A stretch of 64,000 nt of DNA from Bacteriovoracia bacterium. GTDB lineage: Bacteria > Bdellovibrionota > Bacteriovoracia > Bacteriovoracales > Bacteriovoracaceae. Within the stretch, counting starts at the first letter, position 1; each line of letters opens with the position of its first letter. The notes beneath the pieces were generated by a model that worked only from the letters and a program-made list of their open reading frames with translations, searched no databases and was not told the DNA's origin. Shown here piece after piece: positions 5,547-57,314 of this stretch. Both the position numbers and the translations under genes were made by a program. The stretch spans positions 10,010 to 74,009 of the forward strand of contig JBKHVI010000009.1 of NCBI GenBank assembly GCA_046570105.1, written 5' to 3'.

Positions 5547-5595
5547 TTCAATTTTAACAGTATTAAACTGCGCCAGAATGAGACGGGCGAATTGA
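5547..5595 (+). repeat. internally deleted copy of the dispersed ~160-bp structured element
   Basis: TGCGCCAGAATGAGACGGGCGAATT (5569-5593) matches the 3' end of the reverse complement of element 51679-51839; degenerate left arm TTCAATTTTAACAGT. Confidence 0.7.
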
Positions 5596-29276: not shown

Positions 29277-30539
29277 ATGGATAAATTACTCGTCACAGGC
29301 CCTGGTCGCTTAAACGGAACTGTCACTGTATCGAGCGCTAAGAACGCGACTCTTCCGATATTGGCCGGCGCTCTTTTATTTGAAACTCCGGTGAAGCTTG
29401 CCGACATTCCTAAACTCAACGACGTCGCCACCATCATCAAGCTGCTTGAGAGCATGGGTGTAAAAGTTGAGCGTGATGGCAAGAACATGACCCTTGATAG
29501 CTCGAACGTGCATAACTTAGTCGCTGACTATGCTCTGGTTAAAACCATGCGCGCATCGGTTTTGGTTTTGGGACCACTTCTCGCGCGTTTTGGTAAAGCC
29601 AAAGTTTCTCTACCCGGCGGTTGTGCCATTGGTGCACGTCCGGTGGATATTCATCTCACCAATCTAGAAAAGATGGGTGCTAAGATTCAAATCGAGCAGG
29701 GTTATATTTTAGCCGAGTGTGAGCGCTTGCAAGGTTGTGAGTTATCACTTTCTTTCCCATCAGTCGGTGCCACTGAAAATTTAATGATGGCCGCTGTCTA
29801 CGCTGACGGTGAAACGATTATTGAAAACGCCGCTCGTGAACCAGAGATTGTCGATCTCGCTAATTTCCTCATTCACTTTGGAGTGACAGTGGAAGGTGCG
29901 GGGACTTCACGCATTCGTATAATTGGAACAAACACACAAAAGAAATATGCAGCGACGAAACCTTATCGCCCGATCGGGGATCGCATTGAAGCGGCGACGT
30001 TTATTATCGCCGGTCTCATGGCGAACTCAAATATTGTCGTGAATGGCTTTGAGCCATGGACATTAGAAGCTGTGCTTGAAACCTTAGAGAAGATGGGTGC
30101 GAAACTCACGCGTTTAGAAGACGGAGTAGAGGTTCATCCCTCAGGTCGCTTGAAAGGCGCGGTGATTGAAACAGCTCCTTTCCCAGGATTCCCAACTGAT
30201 GTTCAGGCACAGATGATGGCACTGATGTGTCTCTGTGATGGAAACTCGATTATTACAGAGCAAATTTTTGAAAATCGTTACATGCACGTACCAGAACTTA
30301 TTCGCATGGGCTGTAAAGTAACACTCAAGGGCAATGCCGCTTTGATTGAAGGTGTGGAATCACTTTCAGCTGCTCCGGTTATGTGCACCGATCTGCGCGC
30401 CTCAGCTGCATTGGTGCTGGCCGCGCTCACGGCTCATGGACAATCAGATATCCAGCGCATCTATCATCTGGATCGTGGTTATGAAGATCTTGAAGCGAAG
30501 TTTAAAGCGTTAGGTGCAAAGGTTGAGCGAGTTAAATAA
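29277..30539 (+). CDS. murA: UDP-N-acetylglucosamine 1-carboxyvinyltransferase
   Basis: KNATLPI, LPGGCAIGARP, SVGATEN, PGFPTD and DLRA motifs. Confidence 0.98.
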   Translation: MDKLLVTGPGRLNGTVTVSSAKNATLPILAGALLFETPVKLADIPKLNDVATIIKLLESMGVKVERDGKNMTLDSSNVHNLVADYALVKTMRASVLVLGPLLARFGKAKVSLPGGCAIGARPVDIHLTNLEKMGAKIQIEQGYILAECERLQGCELSLSFPSVGATENLMMAAVYADGETIIENAAREPEIVDLANFLIHFGVTVEGAGTSRIRIIGTNTQKKYAATKPYRPIGDRIEAATFIIAGLMANSNIVVNGFEPWTLEAVLETLEKMGAKLTRLEDGVEVHPSGRLKGAVIETAPFPGFPTDVQAQMMALMCLCDGNSIITEQIFENRYMHVPELIRMGCKVTLKGNAALIEGVESLSAAPVMCTDLRASAALVLAALTAHGQSDIQRIYHLDRGYEDLEAKFKALGAKVERVK

Positions 30540-30575
30540 CCCGCAACCTTTAAGCATTTGCATAAAATCCCGCTC

Positions 30576-30795
30576 CCCATTAAAATAAAAAAACTGGTGA
30601 GGGATAGAACCCCATGATGCCGGCATGGGCCCTCACCAGAAATCATCCTTACATTCATAAGGGATTTTTGATAAGGCCATAGAGCAACTCACGGGCCACC
30701 TCCTAAATTCTTAAGACATTAATTTGTTTGAACTCCGAACACTTTGCGTTGGAAAATATTCATCGCGCGATGGAAAAAAACGGACGTCAAAGCTG
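30576..30795 (-). repeat. tandem unit 1: structured sRNA / small-ORF transcription unit
   Basis: Homologous to 30817-31035 (period 240-241 bp). SD AGGAGG, GTG-start ORF 30633-30692 (MSCSMALSKIPYECKDDFW), three hairpins, and CTGGTGAGGG/CCCTCACCAG stem followed by T7 on the minus strand. Confidence 0.85.
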
Positions 30796-30816
30796 AGATT
30801 GCGCAAAATTAAATTA

Positions 30817-31035
30817 CCCCTTAAAATAAAAAAACTGGTGAGGGATAAACCCCATGGGCAGTACATGGGCCCTCACCAGAAATCATCCTTACATCCGTAA
30901 GGGATTTTTGATAAGGCCATAAAGCAACACATAGGCCACCTCCTAAATTTGTAAGCCAAAGAAAATGCAATACTTCGAATGCAATGTGTTGGAAGAAATT
31001 GACCACACGAAGGAAAAAATTGGCTAAACTAGCTC
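30817..31035 (-). repeat. tandem unit 2: structured sRNA / small-ORF transcription unit
   Basis: SD AGGAGG, ATG-start ORF 30873-30932 (MCCFMALSKIPYGCKDDFW), same hairpins and terminator as unit 1. Confidence 0.85.
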
Positions 31036-31057
31036 CATAAAATACTGAGGAGCAGTG

Positions 31058-31393
31058 ATGGACGATTGTTTGTTTTGCAAAATTTTTCAAGGCAAGATTC
31101 CCTCGAAAAAAGTCTATGAAGACGACAACGTCTTTGCTTTTTTAGACATCAATCCTTTGGCGAAAACCCATATTCTTTTTATTCATAAAAAACATACTGA
31201 AAACGTTAATGGACTCTCGACCATTCACGTGGGGCAAGTCTTCACAGCGATTAAAAATTTCACCACCGGAACTGATTTAGAAAAGAAAGGTTTCCGTGTC
31301 GTCACCAATTCAGGCGCTGATGCCTGTCAGACGGTTTTTCATGCGCACTTTCATGTCTTGGGTGGTGAGAAGCTCGGTGGCTTTGGAAAATGA
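31058..31393 (+). CDS. hinT: HIT family nucleotide-binding protein
   Basis: CLFCKI, AFLDINP and QTVFHAHFHVLGG motifs. Confidence 0.92.
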   Translation: MDDCLFCKIFQGKIPSKKVYEDDNVFAFLDINPLAKTHILFIHKKHTENVNGLSTIHVGQVFTAIKNFTTGTDLEKKGFRVVTNSGADACQTVFHAHFHVLGGEKLGGFGK

Positions 31394-50749: not shown

Positions 50750-51673
50750 ATGACAAAAATTTTGTGTTTAATTCTTCTCATCACTTCCTGTGCAGCACCC
50801 ATTCGACGCACACCACTTGATCCTGGTCGCATGACTAATCAAAACACTAATCGCAATGTAAAAGACTTCAATCCCATTCGTAAAAAAATCGCACTCTTGA
50901 GTTTCTATAATGAAGCTCCTTTCGGCGGTGAAGACTTGGCGATTCAAGCGACTGAAGAGTTTCGTCGAGAAGTGATGCGTTCACGTGACTATCTGGTTGA
51001 TCCCACTGCCGCACAAATCTTTGGTAACTCAAAAGAAATTTATTCAGGTGGGGGAGTGAAGCTCGCTCAGCTAACTCGTAAAGCAAAAATGGCCGGCGTG
51101 AATTTGGTTATTTTTGGACGTATTGTTGATGCTCGTGTTCGCCAGGCCTCTGATGAAATTGGTTTTGTGAGAAAGACAAAAGCTCTCGCTGAAACAAAAG
51201 TAGAGATCAAAGTTTTTGATGTGATCTCAAGTAAAGAGCTATTGAGTGACACGGTTGATGGCACAGTTCACGACGATAACTTTCGTTTTCATTTATCTGA
51301 AGAAGAAGAGAACTTGGCCTATCGCCAGGATCTGATGCGCTATTCAACTCGCGTAGCTGTTCGTAAGTTTCTCCCACGCTTAATTAGCCTTGGTTCAAAA
51401 CTCGACTGGACCGGGCGAATCGCTAAGATTATCGGTACAAAAGTTTACATCAATGCCGGCCGCGATAGCGGAATCAACATCGGTGATATTTTAAAAGTTA
51501 TTACTGAAGGCCAAGATGTCTATGACCCTGAAACAGGCGCACTCATTGGTATCTCCAAGGGGGATATCAAAGGCACGCTTGAGGTGATGGATTATTTCGG
51601 GCCAGATGGGGCGATTGCCATTCTTCACTCGGGTGGTTCAGTCACTGAGGGTGATTTCGTACAGCTTTATTGA
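50750..51673 (+). CDS. lipoprotein, CsgG-like domain plus FlgT-C-like domain
   Basis: Lipobox ITSC; KKIALLSFYN; WTGRI...VYINAG..SGI.IGD. Confidence 0.7.
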   Translation: MTKILCLILLITSCAAPIRRTPLDPGRMTNQNTNRNVKDFNPIRKKIALLSFYNEAPFGGEDLAIQATEEFRREVMRSRDYLVDPTAAQIFGNSKEIYSGGGVKLAQLTRKAKMAGVNLVIFGRIVDARVRQASDEIGFVRKTKALAETKVEIKVFDVISSKELLSDTVDGTVHDDNFRFHLSEEEENLAYRQDLMRYSTRVAVRKFLPRLISLGSKLDWTGRIAKIIGTKVYINAGRDSGINIGDILKVITEGQDVYDPETGALIGISKGDIKGTLEVMDYFGPDGAIAILHSGGSVTEGDFVQLY

Positions 51674-51678
51674 TTATT

Positions 51679-51839
51679 TTCAAATTCGCCCGTCTCATCC
51701 TGGCGCACAGAACTTCTTAAGTAATGAAATTCAAGCCAGGATGAATCAATCATTAAACGAAGACTGCACGAGGCGTCCTCAAGATGTTTGTCGCTACTAA
51801 ATAACATACTTAGCTTCGGACTTTACGGGCGAATTTGAA
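51679..51839 (-). repeat. full copy A of the dispersed structured element
   Basis: 15-bp perfect inverted arms TTCAAATTCGCCCGT / ACGGGCGAATTTGAA; internal boxes shared with 56013-56178. Confidence 0.85.
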
Positions 51840-51856
51840 TGGCAAAAAACTACAAA

Positions 51857-52525
51857 TTAAACGTACGGAATCGGATCTTTCATGCCAGCTTCAGTAAAGC
51901 CGCGCATGCGAAGGGCGCAGGAATCACACACACCACAGGCCTTATCTGAACGTGCGTAGCATGACCAGCTCAGCTCAAACGGAGCTTTGAGTTTTACTCC
52001 CAGCTCAACAATTGCTTTTTTCTTTAAGAGAATAACCGGCGTCTCGATCTTGATGTGGCTGGCCTTAGTACCAAGGCCCACCAATTTATTAAAAGCTTCA
52101 TAGTATTGCGGACGACAATCGGGGTAGCCGGGAGAATCTTCCCAGTTCGCACCGATGTATAAAATGCCCGCACCGACAACTTCCGCCCACGAGACAGCGA
52201 GTGAAAGAATGATCGAGTTTCTGAAAGGCACGTAGCTATCAGGAATAAGATCTGAGTCGCCTTGATAGTCTTTCACACTGATCGAAGCATCAGTCAGAGA
52301 GCTGCCGCCGATCTGTTGCAGAAAGCGCATATCAATAATTTTTCGCAAATGTTTGGGGATCTGATAGTGATCAGCGATTTTAACAAATGAGTCGTACTCA
52401 CGAGAAGAAGTCTTCTGGCCATAATCCATATGCAAGAACGCCACTGACTTGTGCTTTTTGACAGCTTCAGCTGCACACACAAGAGAGTCCATTCCACCGC
52501 TGACCAAGACAATGGCATCAACCAT
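51857..52525 (-). CDS. queC: 7-cyano-7-deazaguanine synthase
   Basis: SGGMDS, YGQK, YVPFRN, YPDCR and SWSCY...CGVCDSC motifs. Confidence 0.96.
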   Translation of the reverse strand: MVDAIVLVSGGMDSLVCAAEAVKKHKSVAFLHMDYGQKTSSREYDSFVKIADHYQIPKHLRKIIDMRFLQQIGGSSLTDASISVKDYQGDSDLIPDSYVPFRNSIILSLAVSWAEVVGAGILYIGANWEDSPGYPDCRPQYYEAFNKLVGLGTKASHIKIETPVILLKKKAIVELGVKLKAPFELSWSCYARSDKACGVCDSCALRMRGFTEAGMKDPIPYV

Positions 52526-54699: not shown

Positions 54700-55980
54700 A
54701 TGAACCCTAGTCTCGTAGAGTTGGGAGCGACCATTATTTTCGCGCTCGCCATCTTGCACACCTTTATGGTGTCGAAGTTTGCAGAAATGGCCCATCACTA
54801 TCCGGAAGGATCAATGGGTGAAAACTTGTTTCACTTTTTAGCTGAAGTGGAAGCCGTTTTTGGTATGTGGGCAGCTGTCTTTATCGTCTATATGGCAGCC
54901 GTTGCCGGAGTGAGTGCTCCAATCCCTTATCTTGAAAGTTTGAATTACACCGAGCCAGCTTTTGTTTTCGTCATTATGGCGATGGCGGGAACTCGTCCGG
55001 TTATTAAGCTCGCAGAAAAAGTGATTGTCTTGATTTCAAGTTTGCTACCTATTCCAAAAAAGATGGCCTTCTTCCTCACTGCCTGTGTGGTCGGTCCTCT
55101 TTTGGGATCATTCATTACAGAGCCTGCGGCGATGACAGTCACTGCGCTTATCTTGCAGAAGAACTTCTTCTCTCGTGAAATGAGCACCAAGTTTAAATAC
55201 GCCACAATTGGTTTGTTGTTTGTGAACATTTCAATCGGCGGAACGCTGACTCACTTTGCCGCTCCTCCTGTTCTTATGGTGGCCGGTAAATGGGGTTGGG
55301 GTATGTCTCATATGATGACTCAATTCGGTTATAAAGCCGCCATCGCTTGTATCATCAGTGCCTTGACGATTACGTTTATGTTCAAAAAAGAATTGGCCGG
55401 CAGCTTTGAGCTACGTGCTGAAAGTGGCGATAAGATGCATCCACCAGTTTGGGTCACCATCATTCACTTGATCTTTTTGGCGATGGTGGTTTTAACTGCT
55501 CACCACATGGTGTTCTTCATGGGTCTCTTCTTGTTCTTCCTAGGTTTCACAACAGTGACGCAAGAATTCCAGGATGATCGCATCAAGATTAAAGAATCAT
55601 TGATGGTTGGTTTCTTCTTGGGTGGATTGATTGTGCTTGGATCTCTTCAGAAATGGTGGCTCCAGCCGTTGATTTCATCATTGGGTGACCAAGCGCTCTT
55701 CTTTGGTGCAACTGGTTTGACGGCGATTACCGACAACGCCGCTTTGACTTACTTAGGCTCGTTGGTTGAGTTGAGTGATTCTGCGAAATACTTCTTAGTT
55801 GCTGGTGCAGTGACGGGGGGTGGTTTAACGGTTATCGCTAACGCTCCTAACCCAGCAGGCTACGGAATCTTGAAAGAGAACTTTGAAGGTGGAAATATTT
55901 CACCTTTCGGTCTTTTGAAAGGTGCTCTCTTCCCAACAGTGGTAGCGATTATCTGTTTTGAAATTCTGCCAAATCTCTAA
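54700..55980 (+). CDS. putative Na+/H+ antiporter (DUF1504 family)
   Basis: LAEVEAVFG.W, GSFITEPAAMT, NISIGG.LT.FAAPP, TDNAA and GGGLTVIANAPNPAG motifs. Confidence 0.88.
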   Translation: MNPSLVELGATIIFALAILHTFMVSKFAEMAHHYPEGSMGENLFHFLAEVEAVFGMWAAVFIVYMAAVAGVSAPIPYLESLNYTEPAFVFVIMAMAGTRPVIKLAEKVIVLISSLLPIPKKMAFFLTACVVGPLLGSFITEPAAMTVTALILQKNFFSREMSTKFKYATIGLLFVNISIGGTLTHFAAPPVLMVAGKWGWGMSHMMTQFGYKAAIACIISALTITFMFKKELAGSFELRAESGDKMHPPVWVTIIHLIFLAMVVLTAHHMVFFMGLFLFFLGFTTVTQEFQDDRIKIKESLMVGFFLGGLIVLGSLQKWWLQPLISSLGDQALFFGATGLTAITDNAALTYLGSLVELSDSAKYFLVAGAVTGGGLTVIANAPNPAGYGILKENFEGGNISPFGLLKGALFPTVVAIICFEILPNL

Positions 55981-55983
55981 ATG

Positions 55984-56011
55984 AAAAGGGCCTCGAAAGA
56001 GGCCCTTTTTT
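55984..56011 (+). terminator. intrinsic terminator
   Basis: AAAAGGGCCTC-GAAA-GAGGCCCTTTTTT. Confidence 0.9.
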
Positions 56012-56012
56012 A

Positions 56013-56178
56013 TTTTTACAAATTTGCCAGTAAAGTCCGAAGCTAAATCTCATTTATATTCGAAGATTATTTAGAGGACGCCTTAAGCTTTCTACTAGAA
56101 AAGATAAGTTCATCCTGGAAGCCAATCCAAGCATTTAACTTCTACATAGCCAGGATGAGACTGGCAAAATTGTAAAAA
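56013..56178 (+). repeat. full copy B of the dispersed structured element
   Basis: 19-bp arms TTTTTACAAATTTGCCAGT / ACTGGCAAAATTGTAAAAA (1 mismatch); boxes AAAGTCCGAAGCTAA, GAGGACGCCT, TTCATCCTGG and GCCAGGATGAGAC. Confidence 0.85.
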
Positions 56179-57258
56179 TTAATACTCGATTTTCGGAACA
56201 AACGTCAGCCAACCTTCCGGTGGTGGTACGCGGCCTGCCTGCACACCCTGCAACTCTTCTTTAAGTTCTTTGGAGAGTTTTCCTTCCGGCTCACGTAAGT
56301 GATAGGTGCTGCCGTCTTTGAATTTAAGGCTGGCGATGGGAACAAGCACTGAAGCTGTGCCACAGACAAAGGCTTCACTACATTCACCTGATTTAATTTT
56401 AGCGAGGAGATCATCAATATGGATGCGCTCTTCAATCACTGGCCATTTGCGGCGCTGAGCAAGCTCCATGAGTGATCGGCGTGTGACACCTTCCAAAATA
56501 CTGTCAGAGAGTGGAGGAGTGACAAAAGTATCGTTGATGACAGCAAAGAAATTCATGCCGCTCATCTCTTCCACGTAAGCATGCTCTTTCGAATCAAGCC
56601 ACATGGTTTGATCACAGCCTTCATTCAATGTGCGTGCGTATGAGTGCAAACTGGCGGCATAGTTACCACCCGTTTTGGCAGCACCAATTCCACCGGTAGC
56701 TGCGCGGACTTCATCGCGCTCTACATACACCTTCACGGCTGGATTACTAAAATAGTTTCCTGAAGGTGAGGCGACGACACAGAAAAGAAATTCTTTCGAT
56801 GGCTTAATTCCTAACCCTGCTTCTGAGGCAATCATGAATGGACGAAGATAAAGTGACTCACCTAAGCGGCGAGGAACTAAGTGATGAGAATAAGCAGTAA
56901 GAGTGGCACAGGCCTCGACAAATAGGTCTTCGGGAAATTCCGGCATCGCCATACGACGAGCTGAAAAATTAAATCGGCGAGCGTTATGTTCTGGTCTAAA
57001 TAGGCTGATCTCACCTTCGGGGTGGCGATAGGCCTTAAGGCCTTCAAAAATTTCTTGAGCATAATGAAGAACTTTGGCGCATGGATCAAGTTGGAGGGGG
57101 CCGTAAGGGATCAGTGCGACCTTGCCCCAAGTGCCTTCTTTGTAGTGACACGTCACCATAATCGGCGACATATATTTTCCAAATCCCAAATTTACGTCGT
57201 TAATTGTAAATTTTTTTACGATCTCGACAGCTTCTGGGTTGATTTCAATTCTTTTCAT
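56179..57258 (-). CDS. ilvE: branched-chain amino acid aminotransferase
   Basis: LHYAQEIFEGLKAY, LYLRPF, AKTGGNYAA, EEMSGMN, ILEGVTR and GTA motifs. Confidence 0.95.
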   Translation of the reverse strand: MKRIEINPEAVEIVKKFTINDVNLGFGKYMSPIMVTCHYKEGTWGKVALIPYGPLQLDPCAKVLHYAQEIFEGLKAYRHPEGEISLFRPEHNARRFNFSARRMAMPEFPEDLFVEACATLTAYSHHLVPRRLGESLYLRPFMIASEAGLGIKPSKEFLFCVVASPSGNYFSNPAVKVYVERDEVRAATGGIGAAKTGGNYAASLHSYARTLNEGCDQTMWLDSKEHAYVEEMSGMNFFAVINDTFVTPPLSDSILEGVTRRSLMELAQRRKWPVIEERIHIDDLLAKIKSGECSEAFVCGTASVLVPIASLKFKDGSTYHLREPEGKLSKELKEELQGVQAGRVPPPEGWLTFVPKIEY

Positions 57259-57314
57259 AGGGAACCTCATTCTATAATCAGGGGTATCTTACCCCTGTTG
57301 GGAGCACTTTTGGC

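Follow-up and report, generated by a model that had tools for sequence, protein, structure and literature searches.

A small structured repeat beside an ilvE-like gene of a Bacteriovoracia bacterium, probable member of a lineage-restricted family of mobile DNA elements with a three-way-junction fold

We report that a 166-nt block, here called copy B (positions 56013-56178, plus strand), in a 64,000-nt stretch of Bacteriovoracia bacterium DNA (GCA_046570105.1, contig JBKHVI010000009.1; the whole stretch is hereafter the window) probably belongs to a lineage-restricted family of small, gene-less mobile DNA elements with a three-way-junction fold. Copy B is inserted between the intrinsic terminator of an antiporter gene and the stop codon of an ilvE-like gene, and it is not needed for termination there. 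An earlier note on this DNA had described it as the second full copy of an element, in the orientation opposite to the first (copy A), and an inverted-pair comparison and profile matches both agree with this; the two copies have the same plan and are 64% identical over their alignment. Our data show that the element is mobile, that its copies are old and diverse, and that neither a local terminator nor any known RNA family accounts for it. That it carries no gene is suggested by the loop lengths, which differ between copies.

The window's genome (G000, 3.02 Mb in 131 contigs) was compared with those of ten other species of the genus (G001-G010); completeness of the assemblies is 77-99%, and insertion sequences may be missing from them. 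In G000 an iterated nhmmer search gave 35 matches: three are partial, and the other 32, referred to as full-length, each span over 140 of the profile's 156 positions. Mean pairwise identity among the 32 copies is 58% and the maximum 82% (496 pairs). Conservation is uneven along the element, with a mean column identity of 0.86-0.96 in the core motifs, approximately 0.72 in the arms of the closing stem P1 and 0.57-0.62 in the loops; the near-invariant motifs are AAAGTCCGAA, GAGGACGCC, TCATCCTGG and CCAGGATGAGAC. The core is approximately 155 nt long and the element as inserted 166-187 nt.

Covariance-model matches in the 11 genomes of the genus number 35 in G000 (one being a reverse-strand duplicate), 19 in G007, 11 in G006 and 5 in G003, with none in the other seven, and no match was obtained, under stricter filters, when 60 other genera of the family were sampled with one genome each. 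From a pattern scan of 185,579 species genomes, 80 of the stretches listed were scored with the model; among these 80, model matches occurred only in records labelled Bacteriovoracaceae, Bacteriovoracia or, once, Halobacteriovoraceae. Viral contigs gave no match, and 11 matching stretches were present in JGI metagenome contigs. Searches against Rfam 15 returned no gathering-level match over the whole window and nothing relevant at E ≤10 on copy B, while seven other copies gave a single sub-threshold match of 23.8 bits.

In copy B the 9-nt arms are TTTGCCAGT (56023-56031) and ACTGGCAAA (56160-56168) on the plus strand, and in copy A they are TTCGCCCGT and ACGGGCGAA on the minus strand. The differences, C>T with G>A and C>A with G>T, are both compensatory; the two compensatory changes that had been noted before can thus be read directly in both copies. 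The stem of copy B reaches 18 pairs with one bulge (TTTTTACAAATTTGCCAGT/ACTGGCAAAATTGTAAAAA), so the interval 56013-56178 given previously corresponds to the full stem. Along the plus strand TTTTTACAAATTTGCCAGT is followed by AAA-GTCC-GAAGC, a variable part, TAGA-GGAC-GCC, CTTAAGCTTTCTACTAGAAAAGATAAGT, the hairpin TCATCCTGG-loop-CCAGGATGA, a single G and ACTGGCAAAATTGTAAAAA. The covariance model matches window 56015-56176 with 131 bits, and the folding z-score of copy B is -5.1 for DNA and -4.9 for RNA, none of 200 shuffles folding equally well.

The boundaries were also as first described, i.e. copy B starts right after the antiporter's own terminator, which is real and lies at 55983-56010, and its last base directly adjoins the ilvE-like stop codon (56179-56181). 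A scan for intrinsic terminators around copy B found only this separate hairpin, and no T run follows the copy B stem on either strand. The terminator hairpin (GGGCCTC GAAA GAGGCCC plus T run) recurs elsewhere in G000 and its relatives with 87-97% identity over 30-42 nt, e.g. at G000:C51:14758-14790, and may simply be a common terminator form.

RNAalifold, applied to the 32 full-length copies, predicted three helices, P1 (15 pairs), P2 (GTCC/GGAC) and P4 (TCATCCTGG/CCAGGATGA), with changes on both sides in 19 of 28 pairs. P1, which is formed by the terminal inverted repeats present in all 32 copies, has 13-25 perfect pairs per copy and closes a three-way junction carrying P2 and P4; its sequence varies from copy to copy, and the interior of the element is not palindromic. 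A fourth helix (P3) between P2 and P4 was considered and rejected, end-to-end pairing being 3.5 versus 3.46 for mismatched copies.

Four genomes and public records contributed 72 matches to the covariance-model alignment, and 59 of these are distinct. Among the distinct sequences 97.2% of the 1652 pair cells hold standard pairs, compared to 81.2% in shuffles and at most 50% in slid controls; both sides change in 21 of the 28 pairs (253 cells), and none of 500 shuffles reaches any of the pairing measures, although model fitting of the alignment and relatedness among the sequences bias these counts towards structure. The variety of P1 is visible in the raw MAFFT alignment (CTTTCAGGT/ACCTGAAAG, TAGACCAT/ATGGTCTA and GAGCAGG/CCTGCTC). 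P2 also occurs as GCCC/GGGC, GCTC/GAGC, GCCT/AGGC and GTCT/AGAC, while P4, with 99.4% of its cells paired, covaries as CATTCTGG/CCAGAATG and CAAACTGG/CCAGTTTG.

The few non-Watson-Crick cells comprise 7 G-T, 11 A-C and 36 others, and wobble pairs have no privilege on either strand. Since G-T is no commoner than A-C, the constraint would act on DNA or on both transcripts. With pairing this strictly Watson-Crick, covariation alone does not show an RNA, and it fits a DNA-level hairpin as well as folding of two transcripts. A missing wobble preference therefore offers a simple sequence test that separates DNA-level or two-strand constraint from ordinary RNA structure, and a caution that covariation alone is no proof of an RNA gene.

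Mobility is evident from filled and empty sites. At the antiporter-ilvE junction of G006, G010, G009, G002 and G005 the terminator hairpin and its T run abut the ilvE stop, and relative to these five aligned junctions copy B is a clean 166-nt extra block in G000; in G001 and G003 the junction is approximately 150 nt shorter, judged by coordinates alone. The target duplication of copy B is 0 or 3 bp (TTA). One contig of the public sequencing run X4 joins window position 56011 to 56179 and lacks copy B, whereas contigs of runs X2 and X3 continue through it. Copies A and B thus both show presence and absence among closely related metagenome contigs (for copy A, see below).

Other sites provide longer target duplications, each as a single copy in the empty site of a sister species (Table 1). 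At the G006:C89 site the right repeat is 17 nt and the left resembles the same word minus 7 nt, and at the C13/G006:C27 site the duplication is 13-14 bp. Overall the lengths range from at most 3 bp (copy A) to 15 bp, possibly 17, with no fixed value. In a flank control, where left flanks were compared with the right flanks of other copies, repeats of at least 12 equalled or exceeded the maximum. At C44 the stop codons of both convergent genes fall within the 12-bp duplication, and both genes are therefore left intact. Target sites are unrelated to one another in sequence, and the bases between duplication and P1 vary in length and sequence from copy to copy. A cut at a fixed distance was rejected, since the interval from core motif to insert end varies, from 18 to 31 nt at the 5' end and from 15 to 23 nt at the 3' end. 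A link between the duplications and a GTGTGTTGG REP (repetitive extragenic palindromic) family through the common word TCAGTAAGC was also rejected as chance, there being no REP at any element site. No orientation flips were found between orthologues in six pairs.

The earlier note had called copy B independent, unneeded as a terminator by the plus-strand gene, structure-dependent and probably mobile, and had suggested inspecting the junction in related genomes. All of this is borne out: in five genomes of the genus the terminator adjoins the ilvE stop and the element is missing, 32 full-length copies are present in G000, empty sites carry a single copy of the duplicated target, metagenome contigs differ in the presence of the element, and compensated changes occur even between orthologues. 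The converse, a locally evolved ilvE terminator or spacer with no independent existence and no further copies, would agree with a hairpin at the 3' end of ilvE, but is scarcely credible given these copies, the absence of the element from all five aligned relatives, where the common hairpin serves both genes, and the missing T run.

Neither G006 nor G003 has an element at the copy A site. In run X1, a contig of 3622 nt connects window position 51668 to 51856 with zero differences in 3.2 kb of flank and with 3 nt (ATT) common at the joint, which places an empty allele in the X1 sample; run X1 may be the window's own source and hence not independent. This empty allele may be the ancestral one or the result of a precise deletion. 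One X4 contig spanning the site appears to carry the element in the opposite orientation, which we regard as a contig-level lead only. No donor of the 17-nt 5' extension of copy A was found in G000. A 1-kb insert at the same site in G008 holds two small open reading frames (ORFs), neither a transposase. In the X1 contig, which lacks copy A, QueC and the convergent upstream ORF have stop codons that overlap in TTAA, while with copy A the upstream ORF ends at a different stop (TGA), partly from inserted sequence, and the QueC C-terminus corresponds to window 51857-51873. The QueC frame of G006 and G003 apparently continues into the adjacent gene.

Copies are also lost by internal deletion, leaving hairpins that consist of P1 only or single arms. 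The window has both a miniature and a 3'-end remnant, with full copies at the corresponding sites of relatives (Table 1). C13 keeps a similar miniature between 13-bp repeats at a site where G006 has a full copy, and single arms are left at three sites (G000 C6:22200, G007:C349 and G007:C447). P1-only hairpins with consensus arms number 2 versus 15 full copies. The idea that P1 is a pre-existing REP hairpin invaded by the interior was rejected on this count, one of the two having a full G007 copy at the same site; the miniatures are deletion products. Two G007 copies, L127 (G007:C238, 1470-1720) and L136 (G007:C453), are enclosed by a longer inverted repeat (GAGTGTTGGT ... ACCAACACTC), which suggests either that they are nested in another palindromic element or that the stem has grown outwards.

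Insertions of the family are found at the 3' ends of genes, for the most part where two genes converge. With ORFs from a crude greedy calling (2736 ORFs), 29 full copies could be scored and three more lie at contig ends. Convergent ORFs flank 21 of the 29, compared to 473 of 2615 junctions (18%) in the background (binomial p = 2.4e-10); divergent ORFs flank no copy (background 17%; probability of this outcome 0.005), and the remaining eight are between tandem ORFs, six of them co-oriented with the genes.

Six orthologous copies, judged by both flanks, were identified between G000 and G007 (four), G006 (one) and G003 (one). In the model-fitted alignment the four G007 pairs have substitutions in 2 of 164 core columns, 65 of 363 loop columns and 13 of 120 P1 columns (core versus loop, Fisher p = 1.6e-9). 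The corresponding values are 1/41, 53/89 and 12/30 for the G006 pair, and 10/40, 59/92 and 14/30 for the G003 pair. Compensated P1 pairs separate the G007 orthologues at C19 (two) and C14 (two), C35 differs from its G006 orthologue by two compensated pairs in P1 and one in P2, and compensated P1 changes between orthologues are also present at C22. The decayed G003 orthologue has a wholly different yet perfect 15-bp stem. Compensated changes together with a steady core at orthologous loci indicate that pairing and core are maintained at fixed loci and not only in transposing lineages.

As to the enzymes that might mobilise the element, the reverse transcriptase domain RVT_1, which a retroelement-derived (SINE-like) repeat would call for, was not found in the incomplete assemblies of G000, G006 and G003, and the one G007 match has an internal TGA. 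DDE_Tnp_1 is present in G007 only (one of five genomes), and rve-type transposase domains number 2 in G000, 5 in G007 and 1 in G006, with none in the G003 contigs. An IS5-like transposase gene 210 nt from one G007 copy was dismissed as candidate, because it is outside the element and beyond a terminator. G000 has both a classical pair of REP and RAYT (REP-associated tyrosine transposase) and a divergent RAYT-like family. The latter occurs in all four element-bearing genomes and in one of the seven others of the genus (G008), and its expansion to approximately ten loci in G000 is unusual for RAYT-type genes; the paralogues (approximately 210 aa) are at C33:17232-17864, C72, C4, C62 (two loci), C59, C14, C63 and C2. 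The protein scores 21.9 bits with Pfam Y1_Tnp, below the cut-off. Its genes carry a conserved CATATGCCCCWWTCAA..GGAGG motif just upstream of the start, unrelated to the element, and in G008 the CATATGCCCCWWTCAA motif is present as a pair in inverted orientation. Directly after the stop codon of the C33:17232-17864 gene, and likewise in its G007 orthologue, come the P4 hairpin and 3' arm of an element copy. As a partner the RAYT-like genes were rejected, the family being wider than the element, with members in G008 and in six further genera that lack the element. The classical REP/REPIN family (GGTTCCAACACACTTATCAGTAAGC...GCTTACTGATAAGTGTGTTGGAAC) flanks a canonical RAYT gene (C8:19745-20080) at G000 C8:18430-20240 and is present at approximately ten other G000 loci, including C15, C46, C54, C61, C104 and C121. 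The RAYT and RAYT-like genes are flanked by these other motifs.

Taken together, we suggest that movement takes place at the DNA level with the help of a trans-acting enzyme whose gene lies outside the element, and which would recognise the folded shape and the core motifs, not fixed sequences at the ends. The strict Watson-Crick rule would reflect a folded form of single-stranded or cruciform DNA, or a copy between convergent genes that folds in both RNAs, and resident copies may be 3'-end hairpin modules that are tolerated or retained. The element may have a role in the host.

Several points weigh against mobile DNA as the whole account. The search for a mobilising protein identified none, no longer element with the same ends was found in the assembled G000 contigs, which are incomplete, and all the genomes are incomplete metagenome assemblies, from which insertion sequences are often missing. 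Variable-length duplications and unfixed termini do not fit an ordinary cut-and-paste transposase, and strong core conservation at orthologous loci is not what copies that are purely selfish and decaying would display. The empty allele at copy A could stem from a deletion between 3-nt repeats, promoted by the hairpin, and need not be the trace of a fresh insertion. Finally, the ORF calling behind the 3'-end bias is crude, and the loop counts may be inflated by the model-fitted alignment; pairwise alignments give approximately 11 loop differences per pair and still zero core differences in two pairs.

Among the other explanations, a functional RNA module, i.e. a 3'-untranslated-region element or a small RNA from one or both convergent genes that protects or ends transcripts or binds a protein, with mobility as its mode of spread, is a tentative but serious possibility. 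It would account for core motifs and pairing maintained at orthologous loci, the bias to gene 3' ends and the co-orientation of tandem copies, the stable RNA fold and the persistence of P1-only miniatures, and reading from both sides would explain the Watson-Crick-only pairs. The missing wobble tolerance on either strand is however unusual for an RNA family, no U run follows P1 in the 32 copies, which by the usual signature are not intrinsic terminators, and the G003 orthologue has lost a quarter of its core. With a small but appreciable chance, host use and movement are combined: the element could be a host-useful mobile three-way-junction module acting on both strands, its core a host-factor binding site under selection, and spread without a canonical transposase through a structure-specific nuclease or template switching. 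If true, two-strand use (reading from both sides, or cruciform extrusion between convergent genes) explains the Watson-Crick-only pairs, and the nuclease or template-switching route explains variable duplications, unfixed ends and self-correcting arms. We give little credence to a wholly enzyme-free route, in which replication template switching at hairpins copies a donor into a stalled site and quasi-palindrome correction keeps the arms complementary. The variable duplication lengths and end bases, the outward extension of P1 with copy-specific sequence, the rapid compensated change of the arms between orthologues (13/120 P1 versus 2/164 core columns), the lack of a G-T excess over A-C and the frequent deletions between short repeats would all follow, but the near-invariant core and its conservation in place, the narrow taxonomic range and the long persistence (58% mean pairwise identity) would not, and the P1 arms, approximately 130 nt apart, are far for known quasi-palindrome corrections.

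An ordinary MITE (miniature inverted-repeat transposable element), i.e. a deletion derivative of an insertion sequence moved by the DDE transposase of that sequence through binding of the terminal inverted repeats, is unlikely. Its terminal repeats should not covary between copies as they do here, the termini are unfixed and the duplications vary, no parent with these ends was found in the incomplete G000 contigs, and DDE_Tnp_1 and rve-type domains are distributed unevenly, G003 having copies but no rve in its contigs, while the IS5-like gene near a G007 copy is outside the element, past a terminator. Inverted repeats, flanking direct repeats, small size, many copies, the lack of a gene and the rve-type domains of G000, G007 and G006 are what such an element would display. 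Equally improbable is an HUH (Y1) tyrosine transposase of the RAYT/IS200 kind that moves folded single-stranded DNA, with P2 and P4 in the role that subterminal hairpins have in REPINs or IS200/IS605 derivatives. Hairpins paired by Watson-Crick rules alone agree with single-stranded DNA, and both the distribution of the expanded RAYT-like family in the genus and the copy fragment beside the C33:17232-17864 gene, also in G007, are consistent with a partnership; yet the same family is found in genomes without the element, its genes have their own unrelated upstream motif, and the single adjacency amounts to one orthologous event, which chance could produce given that the element inserts next to stop codons. 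IS200/IS605 and REPIN insertions are not known to make target duplications, and IS200/IS605 elements insert beside a fixed short target; at the sites studied here duplications are present. A lineage-restricted family of mobile DNA elements therefore remains our preferred reading.

Small structured repeats are common in bacteria, and how most of them move and whether hosts use them is not known. The present family offers material on both questions, with insertions and empty sites in sister species, presence and absence of a copy within one sampled population, deletion derivatives, and orthologous copies whose loops, arms and core differ widely in rate of change. Moreover, the covariance model marks approximately 30 intergenic sites per Bacteriovoracaceae genome that otherwise resemble candidate small RNAs or terminators.

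The features of copy B and its surroundings, the other traces of the family in the window and the target duplications are listed in Table 1. Apart from these, window 30558-30958 has two tandem units of approximately 240 nt (55-nt and 95-nt blocks with 80% and 91% identity), situated between an EPSP-synthase-family ORF (29277-30539) and a HIT-domain ORF (31055-31393).

Table 1. Coordinates of copy B and its parts, neighbouring features, other family members in the window, and target duplications (window positions unless a genome is given)
Feature	Position	Strand	Remarks
Copy B, whole inserted element	56013..56178	+	Between antiporter terminator and ilvE-like stop codon
P1 5' arm of copy B (TTTTTACAAATTTGCCAGT)	56013..56031	+	Paired to 56160-56178; P1 columns covary across the family
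Conserved AAA-GTCC-GAA: junction, P2 5' strand (56035-56038), 5' side of GA/GA internal loop	56032..56041	+	Invariant or near-invariant columns
Variable P2 extension and loop	56042..56073	+	Mean column identity 0.57; folded differently in each copy
Conserved GA-GGAC-GC: 3' side of internal loop, P2 3' strand (56076-56079), start of junction	56074..56081	+	Conserved columns, covariation
P2-P4 junction with half-conserved CTYNAGCTTTCTA motif	56082..56109	+	Local hairpin in copy B; no family-wide stem
P4 hairpin: TCATCCTGG (56110-56118), variable loop, CCAGGATGA (56150-56158)	56110..56158	+	99.4% of cells paired; covaries
Conserved G, then P1 3' arm (ACTGGCAAAATTGTAAAAA)	56159..56178	+	Sequence, fold, family pairing
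Antiporter intrinsic terminator, outside the element	55983..56010	+	12 pairs, loop of 4, then T run; kept in element-free relatives
Antiporter ORF	54700-55980		Pfam Na_H_antiport_3, E 4e-175
ilvE-like class IV aminotransferase ORF	56179-57270	-	Aminotran_4, E 2.5e-33
Copy A as mobile unit, 187 nt (3 nt joint ambiguity)	51669..51855	-	Core matches the model at 51677-51841
Miniature, P1 arms only (TCACTCAATTCACCCGT ... ACGGGTGAATTTGA), 21-nt loop	33443..33494	+	Full copy at the same site in G007
3'-end remnant (TGCGCCAGAATGAGACGGGCGAATT)	5569..5593	+	Full copy at the orthologous site in G006
Target duplication TAGGGAATCTTA, 12 bp	G000 C44:11600		Single copy in empty site G007:C208
Target duplication TCAGTAAGCGGCGCT, 15 bp	G000 C1:104443		Single copy in empty site G007:C6
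Target duplication CTAGGGACGCTCT, 13 bp	G000 C49:594		Single copy in empty site G007:C117
Target duplication GTCAGTGAAC, 10 bp	G000 C1:32537		Single copy in empty site G006:C89

The element is a new, lineage-restricted variant of structured MITE-like repeats. A full-text literature search, limited in coverage, found no such element in Bacteriovoracaceae and no MITEs with these properties. The nearest described element is bcr1 of the Bacillus cereus group, while REP/REPIN, Correia/ERIC-type MITEs and SPRITE match in single traits. A review describes bcr1 as mobile, transcribed, approximately 155 bp long and flanked by a 5-bp direct repeat, with compensatory changes that maintain its cruciform-like fold (Klevan 2007 and Kristoffersen 2011, via Delihas 2011, PMC3184786). 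As described there, it is like the present element in length, in being dispersed and gene-less at non-conserved positions, and in having direct repeats and a predicted fold with compensatory changes. The two differ in that the 5-bp repeat of bcr1 is fixed, compared to at most 3 to 15 bp here, that bcr1 is reported to be transcribed while our element is known from DNA sequence alone, and that wobble pairs are not favoured in our element; nor is there any sequence similarity between them (no Rfam family matched).

REPs, as far as the source covers them, are units of 20-40 bp with a GTAG or CGTC head, and REPINs consist of two inverted REPs (PMC3733652). The REP/BIME/REPIN group resembles the element as extragenic palindromic repeats between convergent genes, with compensated hairpins and a proposed movement as folded single-stranded DNA; unlike them, the element has three helices and an interior of 130 nt that is not palindromic and holds conserved motifs of its own, makes target duplications and does not flank RAYT genes. 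For Correia/NEMIS, ERIC, RUP and BOX the review's account gives terminal inverted repeats, target duplications, no transposase, a size up to 200 bp, intergenic location and RNA-level folding (Delihas 2011, PMC3184786), and judged by that account the element is like them in its terminal inverted repeats, target duplications, lack of a transposase, size, intergenic place and capacity to fold as RNA. SPRITE of Streptococcus pneumoniae is cited in the same review as mimicking a Rho-independent terminator (Croucher 2011, cited in PMC3184786). In this respect, as far as that mention goes, the element is unlike SPRITE, having no U run and, for copy B, a separate and complete terminator beside it. Long stem-loop MITEs have conserved terminal repeats that match the parent insertion sequence and a fixed duplication length, whereas the element has covarying terminal repeats and unfixed ends, and no parent was found in G000. 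Compared with palindrome-associated elements derived from IS200/IS605, it has duplications and its targets are mutually unrelated. The element is set apart from all these systems by the combination of covarying terminal repeats, variable duplications with unfixed ends, pairing without wobble preference and a core that is conserved at orthologous loci.

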